Shown piece after piece: positions 1 to 4,043 of a stretch of DNA of 17,097 nt. Position 1 is the stretch's first letter; each line of letters starts with the position of its first letter. The notes under the pieces were generated by a model that made no database searches, was not told where the DNA came from, and saw nothing but the letters and a program-made list of their open reading frames with translations. Position numbers and translations under genes: made by a program. The DNA comes from a virus, in UHGV virus genome UHGV-1592266. The stretch is one strand, 5' to 3'.

Positions 1-723
1 ATCGTCAGTAACTGCCCACCATTTGTTTCTCGACCAATCGTAATACCCTTCGAAGGTATCGCACTCAGTCCAGCCGTAAGACTTACCCCAACACCAAACA
101 TACTGTTTATCGTTCGGCATTCGCTCACTACAGCTTATCCAACCATCCGGAGTTACCGGATAGTTGCCACCCTGAACAGTAGGCATATCCGGACCTTTGC
201 GAATCGCCCTGGCAAGATCGATTTGGTCGTCGTACAACCAGTCACCTGTTTGCGGATTATTTGCTTCTGCCAATTGTGCAGCCCACTCCAGGCCGTCTTT
301 GTGTCCTTGCAGATAGTCCAGCGGTAACTCATCACTATTACTTACAGGTTCGGCCTGAAGCATGGCGGCGCGATAGGCGGTCCAGCCGACAGCTTTTCCG
401 TGTTCAAACGCGCTGTCAAAGTCATCATCAATTTCCATCGCAGCGGGCACAGATACCGGCGCTGGCGGGGCGGTGTAGAGCGGCATTACCTCAATATTGA
501 AGATATCCCCCTCGCTTGGACACGCCTCTGCGCTACCGTAAACCCAAGGGTGAACGACTCCGTTACGCTTGTTGATTAATCTGTGCGCCCACGCCACAGG
601 CTCCGCTTCGAGCGATGCCAGCGCGATACGCGCCAGCGCCGAAGCCTCACCGCATTGAACGTGGTCAGTTTCGATAATTTGCTGTAACTGCTCTTTGGTG
701 AATTCTCTGGTAATAGTGCTCAT
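1..723 (-). CDS. Phage protein, 3' end truncated by window edge; C-terminal region resembles DUF551-type prophage proteins
   Basis: Minus-strand ATG at 723..721 opens a frame (MSTITREFTKEQLQQIIETDH...WISCSERMPNDKQYVWCWGK...) that runs past position 1 with no stop. The Trp/Cys-rich C-terminal segment resembles DUF551 from memory. Same strand as the pL operon. Confidence 0.5.
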   Translation of the reverse strand, partial: MSTITREFTKEQLQQIIETDHVQCGEASALARIALASLEAEPVAWAHRLINKRNGVVHPWVYGSAEACPSEGDIFNIEVMPLYTAPPAPVSVPAAMEIDDDFDSAFEHGKAVGWTAYRAAMLQAEPVSNSDELPLDYLQGHKDGLEWAAQLAEANNPQTGDWLYDDQIDLARAIRKGPDMPTVQGGNYPVTPDGWISCSERMPNDKQYVWCWGKSYGWTECDTFEGYYDWSRNKWWAVTDD

Positions 724-733
724 AGGTTAGTCC

Positions 734-910
734 TCAGTATCCAGAGTACGCGCGGAGTGATGCTATTCTCGCGGTGATATCATTGATGATTTCCTCCACT
801 ACCTCTGCGTGCTCATGTTCATCACGCAAGACATCAAGGGCGCTGTCTATTTCACGGAGCATATCCTGCTGCCATTCAATATCTTCTGATTCCGGGATTT
901 CGTATTTCAT
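734..910 (-). CDS. Small acidic hypothetical protein (58 aa)
   Basis: ATG at 910 is preceded by GGGGAG. The frame (MKYEIPESEDIEWQQDMLREIDSALDVLRDEHEHAEVVEEIINDITARIASLRAYSGY) is tightly packed between neighbouring genes. Below the ORF-track size cutoff. Confidence 0.4.
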   Translation of the reverse strand: MKYEIPESEDIEWQQDMLREIDSALDVLRDEHEHAEVVEEIINDITARIASLRAYSGY

Positions 911-912
911 GC

Positions 913-1257
913 TTACTCCCCTTTACCGGCTGCGGTGACGTTGATGCCAGCGTTATCACAGGCGATGCGGAATGCCGCTTGAAGTTCTCGCGCAACGTGT
1001 GGCACATAGCCGTCGAAGGTTGGCATTTCGACAGTCTTCTTTTCTGCGGCTTCCAGCTCATCCAGCAGCGCCAGCACGGTAGTGGGGTTTGCTGCGGAGT
1101 TCAGCGCGTTCAAGGCAGTGATATCTGCATCAAGCTGAGTTCCTTCTGCCAGTGAGATATCGAAAATGTCATCAGGCGGCATAACACTAAGGCGCTCATG
1201 TGCGCCAACTGCTGCCGCTGCGATTTCACGCAGCGCCTGTTTGTCGATGTTGCTCAT
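913..1257 (-). CDS. Ead/Ea22-like protein (short paralog)
   Basis: N-terminus MSNIDKQALREIAAAA...TTVLALLDELEAAEK parallels the N-terminus of the 355-aa protein at 1523..2590 ([15 protein letters not shown]...PQVVLALLDERDA). Start ATG overlaps the upstream stop (ATGA). Confidence 0.55.
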   Translation of the reverse strand: MSNIDKQALREIAAAAVGAHERLSVMPPDDIFDISLAEGTQLDADITALNALNSAANPTTVLALLDELEAAEKKTVEMPTFDGYVPHVARELQAAFRIACDNAGINVTAAGKGE

Positions 1258-1526
1258 TGGGCGGTTCCTTCGTAACCGATGGCTTCTGCAATTTCAGCAA
1301 GTGTCTCTGCACTTTCACCCACTGGCTCATTCATCCAGTCGAAGGAAACAAGCTTACCGCCTTCGATAACGCCGATGTTGAAATCATCACTACCTTGTGT
1401 TTTCAGACCATGCTTGATTGCCTTATCGCGCTTATCGAAGTCAACGCCGTCTGTCGTGTATTCAACTCCATGGCCTTTCTCGTTGCACCACCAGTACTGC
1501 TGAATAACGATGTATGATTTGCTCAT
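1254..1526 (-). CDS. Hypothetical phage protein (90 aa)
   Basis: Complete ORF whose start overlaps the upstream stop (ATGA) in the leftward operon. No family recognised. Confidence 0.45.
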   Translation of the reverse strand: MSKSYIVIQQYWWCNEKGHGVEYTTDGVDFDKRDKAIKHGLKTQGSDDFNIGVIEGGKLVSFDWMNEPVGESAETLAEIAEAIGYEGTAQ

Positions 1527-2590
1527 AGCGCGGCTCCCTGTCGTAACTGGTCGGCGAGTTCGAATTCACCATGGTTAGTAAATTCGCCTGCAAGTTTTTC
1601 TCTTAGCTTCATAACGGCTTCCTTTGCGCTTTCGATATCCTTATGGTGCCCTGCGCTGTACTTCTTCCCGTTAAATTGAACGCTTGCTACATATCGCTTA
1701 TCGCGCTTATTCCAATAGACCCCCTTGACACCAGTGGTGTTATTTTTCTGGGTTGGTTTGTTGAATTGATTCTGCGATAGAGAGCAAAGGCGCAGGTTTC
1801 TTATGCTGTTGTCTTTCTTGATGCCATTGATATGGTCGATAGGCTGGGAAGGCCATTCTCCGTAATGTAGAAGCCATGCTAGACGGTGAGCAAAGCACTT
1901 CTTGCCAAACAGCGAAAAGGCGTAATAGCCCTGCCAAGTTTGAGAGCCAATAATTGCTCCTTCCTGACGACCTGCAAAGTTGACTTTCGCGGTAAGAACT
2001 CCAGTTTCAGGGTTGTAGTCAATAAGGTCTCTGATATCGCCAACAGACATGAGCAGATTCTTATTAAGGATTTCAATTTCCTTCTGGAGTGGTTCAGATG
2101 CCTCACGCCTAACTTCAGCCAGGAAAGCATCGGTGGCTGGGGTTTTGTTATCTGACTCCAGCCACTGGTTGTAGTAATAATCGAACATGCCAGTAGGATA
2201 ACCACATCCGCCGTGCACGTGGTCTTTCATAGCAGAACCACACATGCAGTAGTCATTGTCAGTATTACTAATGATGTTGATAAGTTGCTGTGTCCGTTGC
2301 TTCAACATCGCATTCTCCGCCGCCAGCGCCGAAAACTTCTCGTGTGCCAACTTAACAGCTGCATCAGCCTGCTTAATTGACTCAGTCGCTTTCTGGTGGT
2401 CTTCGGCCAGCCCTGCTAAATCAGCCTCCAGTTCGGCTAGGCGTTCATTTAATGCATCTCGTTCATCCAGTAGAGCCAGCACAACCTGAGGTGTTACTTT
2501 CATACGAAATGCCAGCAATTTTTGAGGTGTTGCTACTGTTTCAATTGCTACTGCTGCCTCACGCAGTACCTGATAGTCAATCTTGCTCAC
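1523..2590 (-). CDS. Ea22-like N-terminal coiled-coil fused to an HNH endonuclease and an AP2-type DNA-binding domain
   Basis: HNH_3-like motif: FAHRLAWLLHYGEWPSQPIDHINGIKKDNSIRNLRLCSLSQNQFN. It is followed by an AP2-like segment GVKGVYWNKRDKRYVASVQFNGKKYSAGHHKDIESAKEAVMKLREKL. N-terminal 100 aa are Ea22-like coiled coil. Start overlaps the upstream stop. Confidence 0.6.
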   Translation of the reverse strand: MSKIDYQVLREAAVAIETVATPQKLLAFRMKVTPQVVLALLDERDALNERLAELEADLAGLAEDHQKATESIKQADAAVKLAHEKFSALAAENAMLKQRTQQLINIISNTDNDYCMCGSAMKDHVHGGCGYPTGMFDYYYNQWLESDNKTPATDAFLAEVRREASEPLQKEIEILNKNLLMSVGDIRDLIDYNPETGVLTAKVNFAGRQEGAIIGSQTWQGYYAFSLFGKKCFAHRLAWLLHYGEWPSQPIDHINGIKKDNSIRNLRLCSLSQNQFNKPTQKNNTTGVKGVYWNKRDKRYVASVQFNGKKYSAGHHKDIESAKEAVMKLREKLAGEFTNHGEFELADQLRQGAAL

Positions 2591-3168
2591 TGGTTGCCTC
2601 CTTTGCGAAGCTGGTCGGCGATATCTTCGAGAACGCCATCAGAGAATGAGCGGTCAAAATCGCCTTCCGGCGCATTAGCCATAAACTCAGTTGAGGTAAG
2701 AATCATCCGGGCAATATCCGCTGCGTTCTTCGCAGTATCATCAATAAAACCAGCATCCCAGGCAGCCAGCATTCTGTTCGCCACAAAGTAAGCGCCTTCC
2801 TTGCGTGCTTCAGTCTTCACTTCATCCCAAAAAGCGTCGGTGACTTGGGTTTGCGGCATCCTTCCGTCTATTGCGCAGATATACGCATCAGATAGTTCAC
2901 CCTGCTCGCCGTCAAACACGTAGCAACTCTGTACGATAAATTTATTCAGCCACGCATTCTCCACAGCCAGCGCCGCGCACTTGGCCTCAAGGTTATCAAT
3001 CGTGATTCCAGCAGAACGACACTCCCGCAACGCCGTTTCTAGTTTTGATTCAAGTTCACCGAACTTACGGACAAGATATTCAGCGTTTGTTTCGTTAACC
3101 TTTAAATCTCGGGGGATGCATTTACCTTTCAGAAAACCATCCATCTCAATTAGTGACATTTGTTTCAT
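2587..3168 (-). CDS. Hypothetical phage protein (193 aa) sharing motifs with the HNH fusion protein
   Basis: Contains [16 protein letters not shown] and C-terminal DIADQLRKG, which match TDAFLAEVRREA and ELADQLRQG in the 355-aa protein. Start is placed at the ATG at 3168 ([12 protein letters not shown]), preceded by GGAG and overlapping the upstream stop; the ORF-track start at 3186 is a GTG. Confidence 0.5.
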
Positions 3169-3347
3169 TTCTTCCCACTCCGCCACATAGCATTCAGATA
3201 TTTGTTTTGATTCACTGATGGAAAAGAATTTCTCTTAAGCAATTCCTCTCTCGATGGCATTGGCTTTACGCGTTGGCGAATAATCATTTCTGCCGGAAGA
3301 ATGCCGGGATTGTATGCAAGTCCTCTCATGGTAAATTCCTCAGTCAT
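3165..3347 (-). CDS. Small hypothetical protein (60 aa)
   Basis: Start placed at the ATG at 3347 ([15 protein letters not shown]...), which overlaps the last codons of the upstream gene. Start choice is uncertain. Confidence 0.35.
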
Positions 3348-3636
3348 TACTGATAGCGCCATAGCGTGAGCGGTAATTACGCAGGCGCGGGTCGATATAT
3401 TCAGGGAATTTGTCTATTGTCGCTTTTCGCAACGGTCTCATTGCTGTTTCGTTTGTTCGGTCCTTCTCATCTTTTAACGCGAGTTGTATATCGCGTCGGT
3501 ACATCCGTTCTGCTTTTGTTTCTGGTGGCAGATCGATAAACGTGTCGAAATTGTTTTTGATATTTTCCAGCACCTCCGCCTTGGAGCTACCGGAACAGCG
3601 GCGCGGGTCATCCGCACCATACATAGGCGCTGGCAT
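3340..3636 (-). CDS. Hypothetical phage protein (98 aa)
   Basis: ATG at 3636 is preceded by AAGGA. Lies downstream of the recombination genes, where P22-type phages carry abc anti-RecBCD genes (position only; no sequence match claimed). Confidence 0.45.
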
Positions 3637-3659
3637 AATGGAATCCTTATGTTGCTACT

Positions 3660-4043
3660 TTAGAAGGGAATTGAATCGTCGTATTCAGGATGATTTTGAT
3701 GATTGCTACTTTGCTGCTGTTGGCTGTTTCCTGAGGTTGCAAATCCAATCTTTGCATTCAGTAATTCAAGAGTGATTGATTGACCATTTTGCCCCTGATA
3801 AACATCAACCCTGATGTTTTCTCCGGTAATTTCCACAATGCCACCTTCAACAAGAACACTACGGTAGTAATCCGCTTGCGCTCCCGGCTTGGCAAATACA
3901 ACGGCGCTGTAGTTTGTCCATTCTTTCTTTTTTGTCTGGCGATCGTAATACTGAACGCCAGCACGGATGTTGAATCCGATATTTTCCCCGGCCTGAAACT
4001 CTCTTGCGGGCTTGTTTAGTCTTACAGTAATCGAATGTGCCAT
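3660..4043 (-). CDS. Phage single-strand DNA-binding-like protein with acidic SSB-type C-terminal tail
   Basis: Start placed at MAHSITVRLNKPAREFQ... The C-terminus ...PEYDDSIPF resembles the SSB-Ct DDDIPF tail, preceded by a Gln/Ser-rich linker. Start ATG overlaps the erf stop (TAATG). Confidence 0.55.
   Translation of the reverse strand: MAHSITVRLNKPAREFQAGENIGFNIRAGVQYYDRQTKKKEWTNYSAVVFAKPGAQADYYRSVLVEGGIVEITGENIRVDVYQGQNGQSITLELLNAKIGFATSGNSQQQQSSNHQNHPEYDDSIPF

Follow-up and report, generated by a model that had tools for sequence, protein, structure and literature searches.

The window, a stretch of 17,097 nucleotides (nt) from the virus genome UHGV-1592266, encodes a 355-amino acid (355-aa) protein in which an Ea22-like N-terminal part is joined to an HNH-AP2 endonuclease segment. 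The gene (1523..2590; this and all other features described here lie on the minus strand, in window coordinates unless another locus is named) is an intact, accessory member of the mosaic Ea22 family carried by an E. coli lambdoid prophage. We propose, as the likely origin of this arrangement, that a homing-type HNH-AP2 endonuclease was captured in frame long ago as a C-terminal cassette of Ea22-like proteins and was delivered into a gene of the mEp213 type by recombination at short conserved boxes. The fusion is a fairly widespread product of domain shuffling rather than a fresh insertion, and databases already hold many copies of it.

The composition of the protein is as the initial annotation, made from the sequence alone, had described it, and the open reading frame (ORF), Pfam, PHROGs and a structural match agree on it. 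The N-module (aa 1-149, 2144..2590) contains the Ead/Ea22 N-domain at aa 2-88, a long helix at aa 34-109 that would form a coiled coil, and a Cys/His cluster (C115-C129). It is followed by the hinge TPATDAFLAEV (aa 150-160, 2111..2143), which joins N-modules to C-terminal cassettes, by a cassette-specific linker helix, RREASEPLQKEIEILNKNLL (aa 161-180, 2051..2110), by the HNH-AP2 core (aa 181-341, 1568..2050), which equals a complete free-standing endonuclease ORF, and by the tail EFELADQLRQGAAL plus stop codon (aa 342-355, 1523..1567), which contains a Shine-Dalgarno (SD) sequence for the next gene. The two flanking motifs of the initial annotation are located at aa 153-164 (TDAFLAEVRREA) and aa 344-352 (ELADQLRQG). 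The Pfam families Ead_Ea22 (PF13935; aa 2-88, 36.6 bits against a cutoff of 27) and HNH_3 (PF13392; aa 233-275, 1766..1894, 57.1 bits against a cutoff of 24.8) both exceed their gathering scores. PHROGs divide the protein between phrog_368 (Ea22-like, unknown function; aa 1-168, E = 7.9e-41) and phrog_99 (HNH endonuclease; aa 167-351, E = 6.6e-66). A PDB sequence search with the protein gave nothing significant, NCBIfam returned coiled-coil noise only, and the PADLOC defense models gave just a marginal 'HEase' match (E = 0.0027) and coiled-coil noise.

The predicted structure of the C-terminal half resembles known homing endonucleases and AP2 domains. A first full-length AlphaFold2 (AF2) model, built from a shallow alignment, predicted helices at aa 34-109 (predicted local distance difference test score, pLDDT, 74-90), aa 151-179 (hinge plus linker) and aa 342-354. 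It was unusable for the HNH region (pLDDT <50) and was replaced there by a model of aa 176-355, whose alignment was built with diverse free-standing homologs and whose pLDDT is 91.8. Using this second model, Foldseek retrieved I-HmuI (1u3e) with a probability of 1.00 over 97 columns and the AP2/ERF domain of AtERF1 (1gcc) with a probability of 1.00 and a root mean square deviation (rmsd) of 1.3 Å over 49 columns. The other solved AP2 neighbors are TEM1 (7et5, rmsd 1.3 Å) and Plasmodium AP2 domains. The AP2 fold in the model comprises strands 116-119, 124-131 and 134-141 and helix 144-162 (model numbering). The residues of the HNH motifs (AHRL, IDH, DN, NLR and QN...N) are intact, namely H235, D252, H253, N261, N265, R267 and N277. 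As a side observation, the Cys/His cluster CMCGSAMKDHVHGGCG (aa 115-129, 2204..2248), between the coiled coil and the hinge, is common to the HNH-free alleles described below; it could bind metal, and AF2 confidence is low in this region.

Where does the HNH-AP2 segment come from? The cassette shares no more than 49% identity with free-standing phage HNH-AP2 endonucleases. Among 1.84 billion cluster representatives, 97,446 relatives of the cassette were found; only three clusters reach at least 65% identity, and all of these are Ea22-type fusions, the rest being free-standing proteins (160-185 aa) or tandem duplications. The region of the window protein that aligns with 27 free-standing proteins extends from M181 to G341. 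M181 takes the position of the free-standing initiator methionine, a few residues ahead of a Y-x-P-E-T-G motif, and G341 coincides with the end of the free-standing ...GEF(A/T)NHG; one free-standing relative, that of ClaudiaMuster (L011), ends ...NHGE. On either side of the core, 20 residues N-terminal and 14 residues C-terminal to it have no counterpart in the free-standing family, and the linker is present in all HNH-fused proteins and in none of the free-standing relatives. No SD sequence was found upstream of M181, and the core has no start signal of its own. Twelve columns, including the seven HNH-motif residues listed above, are invariant across 31 fused and free-standing sequences. Because of these alignment limits and the small size of the fused clade, we infer a single old capture, in which a whole free-standing-type HNH-AP2 ORF would have been placed in frame between the hinge helix and the C-terminal tail.

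The N-module also exists without the nuclease. The HNH-free orthologs for which the initial annotation had suggested a search were found as alleles: nt 1-479 of the gene (codons 1-160, to ...TPATDAFLAEV) are 99% DNA-identical to HNH-free genes of mEp213 (gp35), mEp043, CurroJimenez (Bas106_0027) and several E. coli chromosomes or prophages. In these alleles, whose products have 214 aa, TDAFLAEV is followed by a 54-aa domain (RAHDLNAFIRHH...FREQIRKEAAQ) that is missing from the 355-aa protein. In a large protein database, the window N-module is joined to 10 other, non-HNH C-terminal cassettes, each of which begins right after TDAFLAEV and most of which end with ...Q(L/I)R(K/Q)(G/E)xxx. One of them is a side observation in its own right. 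Dewey_CDS0030 (PQ850600.1, L001 1713..2252), which surfaced in a megablast search as a neighboring 'HNH endonuclease', is an Ea22-like protein that matches only Ead_Ea22 in Pfam, with no HNH domain; its C-terminal domain (...AERQRQ..EGW.PEHDD...WPW..WWKP..AGALILAEIERIDR) also serves as a cassette on the window N-module (P0075 and P0108), and its annotation is probably wrong.

The number of HNH-free homologs that share the N-module amounts to 42, which bears on the idea that the HNH-AP2 region is a constant feature of the family or an intein removed by protein splicing. Both versions would fit the in-frame position of the segment and nothing beyond it, and we give them practically no weight. 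The HNH-free alleles contain no contiguous 'extein', Pfam finds no Hint or intein domain in the 355-aa protein, and the junctions RR|EA.. and ..HGEF|ELA include no Cys, Ser or Thr, nor do the junction residues V160|R161 and F343|E344. The initial annotation had likewise seen no sign of an intein. An intron was rejected together with the intein, given the continuous 355-codon ORF.

The breakpoints of the exchange that joined the two halves in this phage are directly visible by blastn. Relative to CurroJimenez (L002), identity extends over 3636..2112, breaks and resumes over 1264..1039; the intervening segment (1265..2111), 847 nt that hold the HNH cassette and the 90-aa gene downstream of it, replaces the 155-nt C-cassette of Bas106_0027. 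Relative to the E. coli prophage L006 (protein P0002), 911 nt (2145..1235) are 99.1% identical behind a different N-module, and this stretch takes in the hinge, the HNH cassette and the 90-aa gene as well as the initial 20-30 nt of the gene that follows. In the comparison with phage Dewey (L001), identity extends across the 193-aa gene as far as 2598 and picks up again precisely where the 90-aa gene begins (1526..1225, 99% identity); the whole 355-aa gene is missing from Dewey. In the Salmonella (L007) and Enterobacter (L009) prophages, the cassette alone matches (2143/2146 to 1519/1534, 80-82%). The left crossover lies inside the hinge, in a stretch (TTCCTGGCTGAAGT) common to both parental types, with breakpoints at 2112/2113 on the N-module side and 2143-2146 on the cassette side. 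The right crossover lies in a box (1235..1264) that encodes MSNIDKQALRE, the conserved 5' end of the next Ea22-like gene, where the identity blocks of L002, L003, L001 and L006 overlap. The crossovers map to ~14-35 nt of hinge sequence and to a stretch of ~30 nt within the MSNIDKQALRE box. The cassette thus shows presence/absence polymorphism at one locus (the window versus CurroJimenez, mEp213 and Dewey), and the exchange in this phage carried the HNH cassette and the 90-aa gene together behind an mEp213-type N-module. The 90-aa gene accompanies the HNH cassette in two E. coli prophages (99% identity); in Dewey, it stands directly after the 193-aa Ea22-like gene, without HNH.

These comparisons bear on the initial reading of the locus, which was a recent, lineage-specific insertion of a homing endonuclease gene (HEG) into one of three paralogs, splitting a contiguous C-terminal region. 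The flanking motifs shared with the 193-aa paralog and the HNH-free allele of close relatives are what one would expect from such an event, and part of the claim holds: the module is in frame, is flanked by family-typical sequence and has a core of free-standing size. The part that is not supported is the insertion into one copy of the local paralogs. Both motifs are present in the 193-aa paralog but are not contiguous there, as a cassette of ~55 aa (AYFVANRML...GVLE) lies between them. Since the paralog motifs bracket another cassette, the HNH-AP2 segment substitutes for a cassette and interrupts none. The HNH-free allele likewise has a 54-aa cassette of its own that is missing here, the identical cassette with its 90-aa gene (99.1% over 911 nt) stands behind another N-module in an E. 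coli prophage, and the same cassette is found on at least 16 unrelated N-modules in four genera, with synonymous sites saturated in the orthologous cassettes of Salmonella and Enterobacter. A recent insertion is already contradicted by these findings and is very improbable; reviving it would take a contiguous TDAFLAEVRREA... -> ...ELADQLRQGAAL with no cassette between the two.

The hinge is the joint at which the family is shuffled. The HNH-AP2 cassette occurs at ~90% or more aa identity in 66 database proteins, more divergent members such as P0073 are ~60-75% identical, and the bearers are E. coli, Salmonella enterica (hundreds of contigs), Enterobacter and Citrobacter. One HNH cassette cluster is joined to the 16 or more N-module clusters always at TDAFLAEV, and the eight close prophage loci found in an IMG/VR scan are all in-frame fusions. 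A scan of one genome per species gave a single remote match in Lactobacillaceae, which is uninformative. The TDAFLAEV junction is shared by 66 HNH-fused and 42 HNH-free proteins, 108 of 120 homologs in all. In the pairwise alignment that the initial annotation had advised, the motif matches to the 193-aa paralog alone are not significant (BLASTP E = 0.032 and 0.15), but a family alignment of 37 HNH-fused and HNH-free sequences supports the motifs. Its nearly invariant columns are the coiled-coil box (L89 A90 E92 N93 A94), the hinge (T150 P151 T153 D154 F156 L157 A158 E159 V160) and R350 of the tail, and no others. As a control, we considered the non-nuclease cassette of the 193-aa paralog, for which 70 matches with a recognizable hinge show fusion at TDAFLAEV to no fewer than 21 N-module clusters. 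Some N-modules are common to the control and HNH cassettes (P0293 ~ P0030, P0326 ~ P0020, P0291 ~ P0047). The Ea22-like family is a matrix of N-modules and C-cassettes, and shuffling at the hinge is generic. Because the non-nuclease cassette shuffles equally freely, homing activity is not needed to explain the pattern. The occurrence of the HNH cassette on 16 or more unrelated N-modules, together with its saturated synonymous divergence, suggests that the capture is old and that the cassette reached this gene by module exchange. After the capture, the unit of hinge, linker, HNH-AP2 core and tail would have been swapped among unrelated N-modules by homologous recombination at short conserved boxes.

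Several side observations concern the joints. The coiled-coil box (K)CAALA(A/V)ENA(x)L(K/N), which contains columns L89-A94, is a third nearly invariant box and a further mosaic breakpoint: a 44-nt island at the LAxENA box (2945..2988) is 95% identical to L006, and an 84-nt island (2309..2392) is 92% identical to a Salmonella gene. With this additional breakpoint, Ea22-like genes seem to comprise no fewer than three segments that can be exchanged. L013 (600..650 of a Logan SRR12299051 contig) differs from L017 by a 1-nt hinge deletion (TTCCTGG to TTCTGG), which splits the fusion into a 93-aa N-module protein and a 196-aa HNH-AP2 protein; the gene for the latter begins with the GTG of '...EV', in overlap with the new stop codon (GTGA). 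The split may in effect regenerate a free-standing, translationally coupled endonuclease gene; as the contig is single and short, a sequencing error is possible. P0072 was rejected as a 'free-standing' version, as it reflects a 1-nt hinge deletion in one short contig. P0041 and P0114 of Enterobacter kobei, probably from one genome, are two HNH fusions with different N-modules, and in P0050, read-through takes the tail ELAAQLRQ on into a Cys-rich extension.

A selfish explanation of the same distribution would make the cassette a splicing-free, in-frame homing element. The nuclease would cut HNH-less Ea22-like alleles in co-infecting phages or resident prophages, and the recombinase (Erf, RecT or Rad52 with Abc2) would repair the break from the HNH+ allele, with the hinge and the gene-boundary boxes as homology arms, leading to over-transmission. 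Such a model is consistent with the architecture and fold of homing endonucleases, with near-identical phage backbones that differ in the presence or absence of the cassette, with the exact position of the cassette between conserved boxes and beside a recombination module, with its presence on 16 or more N-modules in four genera, with the few decayed copies (P0114 frameshifted inside AP2, P0078 truncated in AP2, L013 split) and with the known occurrence of phage HEGs at exchange boundaries, where they swap domains (PMC10448857). However, the spread of the cassette does not go beyond passive recombination as gauged by the control, since the non-nuclease cassette equals or exceeds it in promiscuity (at least 21 N-modules against at least 16), and 10 cassette types share the window N-module. 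The N-module occurs in 766 of 5,426 complete E. coli genomes, which offer potential 'empty' sites in terms of homing, and a DNA search with the HNH half (1523-2111) matched none of the 5,426. HNH+ and HNH- alleles hardly differ in their hinge DNA, and what follows the hinge is variable among empty alleles, so a hinge-spanning target would be either self-cut or unconserved. In addition, the exchange also brought the unrelated 90-aa gene, the segment is neither a free-standing ORF nor embedded in an intron or intein but part of a continuous 355-codon ORF, and no conserved partner or immunity gene follows it. A dN/dS ratio (non-synonymous to synonymous substitution rates) of 0.025 with saturated synonymous sites and no insertions or deletions (indels) would also be unusual for a purely selfish HEG cycle. 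Thus, we consider it unlikely that the cassette is an active selfish element. A broader form of this idea, in which Ea22-like genes are a two-joint 'cassette display' (hinge and gene-boundary box) driven by the HNH-AP2 nuclease cutting HNH-less alleles, appears less likely still. If it were true, the enzyme would cut near conserved boxes in co-resident prophages, repair by Erf, RecT and Abc2 would over-transmit the cassette, and a by-product would be fuel for the extreme module shuffling across the ea region.

A toxin/immunity role was also rejected, as the genes 3' of the cassette are unrelated in the four contexts compared (90, 77, 106 and 174 aa), and no conserved partner or immunity gene was found among them.

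The cassette is under very strong purifying selection. Synonymous sites are saturated in comparisons among the E. coli, Salmonella and Enterobacter cassettes (proportion of differing synonymous sites, pS, ~0.7; third-position identity 0.53), while 4-6% of the non-synonymous sites differ and no indels occur in 203 codons, giving dN/dS values of 0.023-0.032. For the same window-Salmonella pair, dN/dS is 0.33 in abc2 and 0.30 in the DUF2737 gene, with dS values of 0.43 and 0.68. The most constrained parts are the HNH_3 segment (proportion of differing non-synonymous sites, pN, 0.010-0.020) and the AP2 domain with the inter-domain linker (pN 0.006). A pS of 0.98 in the AP2 segment was rejected as a signal of more than saturation, as the codon alignment showed ordinary saturation and a small-sample artifact. 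Histories are discordant within 2 kb in the comparison with the Salmonella prophage L007 (3340..3636 versus 1526..2134), where the cassette has a dS of ~2. The low dS of abc2 and DUF2737 relative to that of the cassette indicates that the flanks were exchanged between E. coli and Salmonella phages far later than the cassette lineages split. The cassette is therefore an old, strongly maintained protein with a history unlike that of its neighbors, and its very strong purifying selection indicates an enzyme that is kept because it is used, the activity itself being predicted.

The constraint profile might alternatively point to a nuclease-dead, DNA-binding adaptor, in which HNH-AP2 would anchor the Ea22 scaffold at a particular DNA site without cutting, perhaps for regulation. 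In line with this idea, AP2 and the inter-domain linker form the most conserved part, and lambda Ea22 has a regulatory, pro-lysogenic phenotype (PMC7093339). However, the HNH-motif residues that are invariant in the free-standing relatives are all kept, and the HNH_3 segment itself is tightly constrained, as given above, which makes an adaptor improbable.

Taking the old capture and delivery by box recombination as our preferred reading, we can outline what the protein may do. It would be made early after infection or induction and would oligomerize through its coiled coil, as in the lambda Ea22 tetramer. The C-terminal half is predicted to be a Mg2+-dependent enzyme that nicks or cleaves DNA at specific sequences, with specificity provided by the AP2 domain and by the N-terminal beta-hairpins of the HNH module, and oligomerization would unite two or more nicking centers. 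For the 355-aa protein as a whole, the most probable activity is that of an oligomeric DNA nickase or cleavase that is sequence-specific and is made early in infection.

Some points weigh against this reading or limit its reach. Nuclease activity and oligomeric state are predictions from sequence and models. The AP2 domain (PF00847; aa 286-335, 1586..1735) scores 26.1 bits in Pfam, under the gathering cutoff of 33.3; despite this sub-threshold score, the assignment is confirmed at the level of the model by the structural match to AtERF1. The single old capture is suggested by the small number of closely related clusters. The absence of the HNH half from the 5,426 complete E. coli genomes and, at 60% or more aa identity by tblastn, of the cassette from 50,697 phage records, in which free-standing relatives below that identity were the only matches, suggests that its benefit, if any, is not general. 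The hinge is conserved as protein despite synonymous variation and may have a structural or functional role beyond that of a recombination joint. Finally, an active selfish (homing) contribution to the spread of the cassette keeps a low probability.

The C-terminal tail, which the initial annotation had taken as an insertion flank, probably has a role in translation of the next gene. The tail of the 355-aa gene contains a gene-boundary signal: the SD sequence CAGGGAG (1534..1540) stands 7 nt ahead of the ATG of the 90-aa gene (1524..1526), which overlaps the stop codon. Tails were examined at 1523..1567, 2587..2631 and 1254..1290 of the window and in loci L002, L003, L006, L007, L009 and L016-L022. 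Family tails among them follow the layout CGC AAA GGA G (or CAG GGA G, AAG GAG G), N7 and an A/GTGA start/stop overlap, and the unrelated 90-aa gene ends alike (GAAGGA-N8-ATGA). All ea-gene tails examined have this layout of SD, spacer and start codon, except those of the DUF2737 gene and the 58-aa gene. This arrangement suggests that the R-(K/Q)-G-x3 tail holds the SD sequence and spacer of a translationally coupled downstream gene, and it probably explains the K/RGE terminal motif of Ea22, which was reported as a motif of unknown significance (PMC7093339). The A-x-Q-L-R residues just upstream of the tail are also conserved and may be part of the same recombination or translation box or form a helix end (helix 342-354).

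The gene stands in a compact run of short genes on the minus strand (window 700-3700) that are linked by overlaps of stop and start codons. In transcription order, the run is headed by the DUF2737 gene (3165..3362), followed by the 193-aa Ea22-like paralog (2587..3168), whose ATG at 3168 overlaps the DUF2737 stop codon as ATGA and for which the ORF tool lists a longer, 199-aa form with a GTG start (2587..3186). This paralog consists of a different N-module, the LAxENA box, the hinge variant TDAFWDEV, the non-nuclease cassette and a tail with the SD sequence AAAGGAGG (2597..2604). The GTG start codon of the 355-aa gene overlaps the stop codon of this gene (GTGA), and its own stop codon overlaps the ATG of the 90-aa gene (1254..1526) as ATGA. 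The 90-aa gene matches phrog_26897 in PHROGs and has no match in Pfam, NCBIfam or PADLOC. The 114-aa Ea22-like paralog (913..1257) comes next, which places the 355-aa gene between two Ea22-like paralogs, and a 58-aa gene closes the run. As stated initially, the 114-aa paralog has only the N-terminus in common with the 355-aa protein (E = 2e-4); it contains the Ead_Ea22 N-domain alone (64.2 bits in Pfam), without a hinge, ends with the tail ...GKGE and has an N-terminus identical to those of Bas106_0026 and mEp213 gp34.

The window, with abc2, erf, kil, cIII and replication genes, represents the early region of a lambdoid phage and is 94-98% identical in patches to the E. coli phages CurroJimenez_Bas106, HK633, Sf101, mEp043/mEp213 and Sf6. 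The exact 355-aa protein (P0001) is encoded in four human-gut or ENA contigs as part of a prophage that ends with an integrase gene adjoining a pectinesterase gene and an aconitase-family gene. We take these two genes to be ybhC and ybhJ, the neighborhood of the lambda attB site of E. coli. The gene order is erf - abc2 - (DUF2737) - ea genes - int - ybhC and is likewise found in L006, L007 and L009. In all contexts examined, across four genera, the position of the gene is constant, after the recombinase, abc2 and DUF2737 genes and before xis/int. No promoter-like or terminator-like sites were found on the strand of the 355-aa gene within the cluster, and synteny with lambdoid early-left regions suggests that the gene belongs to the pL operon.

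The fusion provides a biochemical handle on Ea22, a long-standing part of the 'dark matter' of lambda, as a conserved endonuclease at the C-terminus suggests that the scaffold works on or near DNA. The strongly selected capture of a whole homing-type ORF into a modular protein also bears on the domestication of selfish nucleases. Two conserved motifs receive a simple explanation, the hinge as a module joint and the K/R-G tail as the container of the ribosome-binding site of the next gene. In addition, databases label the fusions plainly as 'HNH endonuclease', which hides the Ea22 scaffold and makes them look like ordinary free-standing homing genes.

Ea22 proteins were described as tetramers in which a short N-domain and a coiled coil precede a variable C-terminal domain (CTD), and their organization was called mosaic (PMC7093339, PMC10834534). 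The 355-aa protein resembles Ea22 of lambda and Stx phages in its location between recombination genes and xis/int in the early leftward operon, in its three-part build and in its conserved basic-Gly tail (K/RGE) (PMC7093339, PMC10834534). However, the published CTDs are small acidic domains for dimerization or of unknown function, with one DUF551 variant and one domain related to the MazZ type, and none is a nuclease, whereas the window CTD is a full predicted HNH-AP2 endonuclease; the nuclear magnetic resonance paper never uses the word 'nuclease'. The window sub-family also differs in its invariant hinge (TPATDAFLAEV), of which we found no description, and literature searches on Ea22, Ea22-like proteins and exo-xis endonucleases yielded no description of an Ea22-HNH fusion.

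Free-standing HNH_3-AP2 endonucleases (phrog_99), such as Bas77_0074 of ClaudiaMuster and gp21 of Salmonella phage 64795_sal3, have the same domain order, HNH residues and limits (M181...NHG341) as the cassette, and the structural prototype I-HmuI (1u3e) has the same fold as the modeled HNH domain of the window. The free-standing proteins are independent ORFs of 160-240 aa or tandem duplications, whereas the window module is translated as the C-terminus of a coiled-coil protein with a 20-aa linker and a 14-aa tail. In polymorphic toxins, a short invariant motif (VENN in CdiA, PxxxxDPxGL in Rhs) marks the point after which unrelated C-terminal domains, nucleases included, are swapped. Unlike these delivered toxins, the Ea22-like proteins are intracellular phage proteins, and the window cassette has no cognate immunity gene.

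In phage ShiLan, an HNH gene lies inside another phage gene, a DNA methylase gene, as neither intein nor intron and with presence/absence polymorphism (PMC11855218). The ShiLan HNH gene is in another frame than its host gene, and in-frame read-through yields a loop, whereas the window nuclease shares the frame of its host gene and takes the place of a domain. A homing-type nuclease in a chimeric phage protein is also known from Odn of vibriophage ICP1 and from the domain swaps of HEGs (PMC8263062, PMC10448857), and this literature locates nuclease genes at the boundaries of genetic exchange (PMC10448857, PMC8263062). Odn acquired a DNA-binding domain through which its nuclease is retargeted to satellite origins, a function demonstrated experimentally, whereas the added part in the window protein is a predicted oligomerization scaffold. 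Domain swaps of HEGs, chimeric domesticated nucleases and an HNH gene inside a phage gene are thus all known, and the Ea22-HNH-AP2 fusion is a further variant among them.

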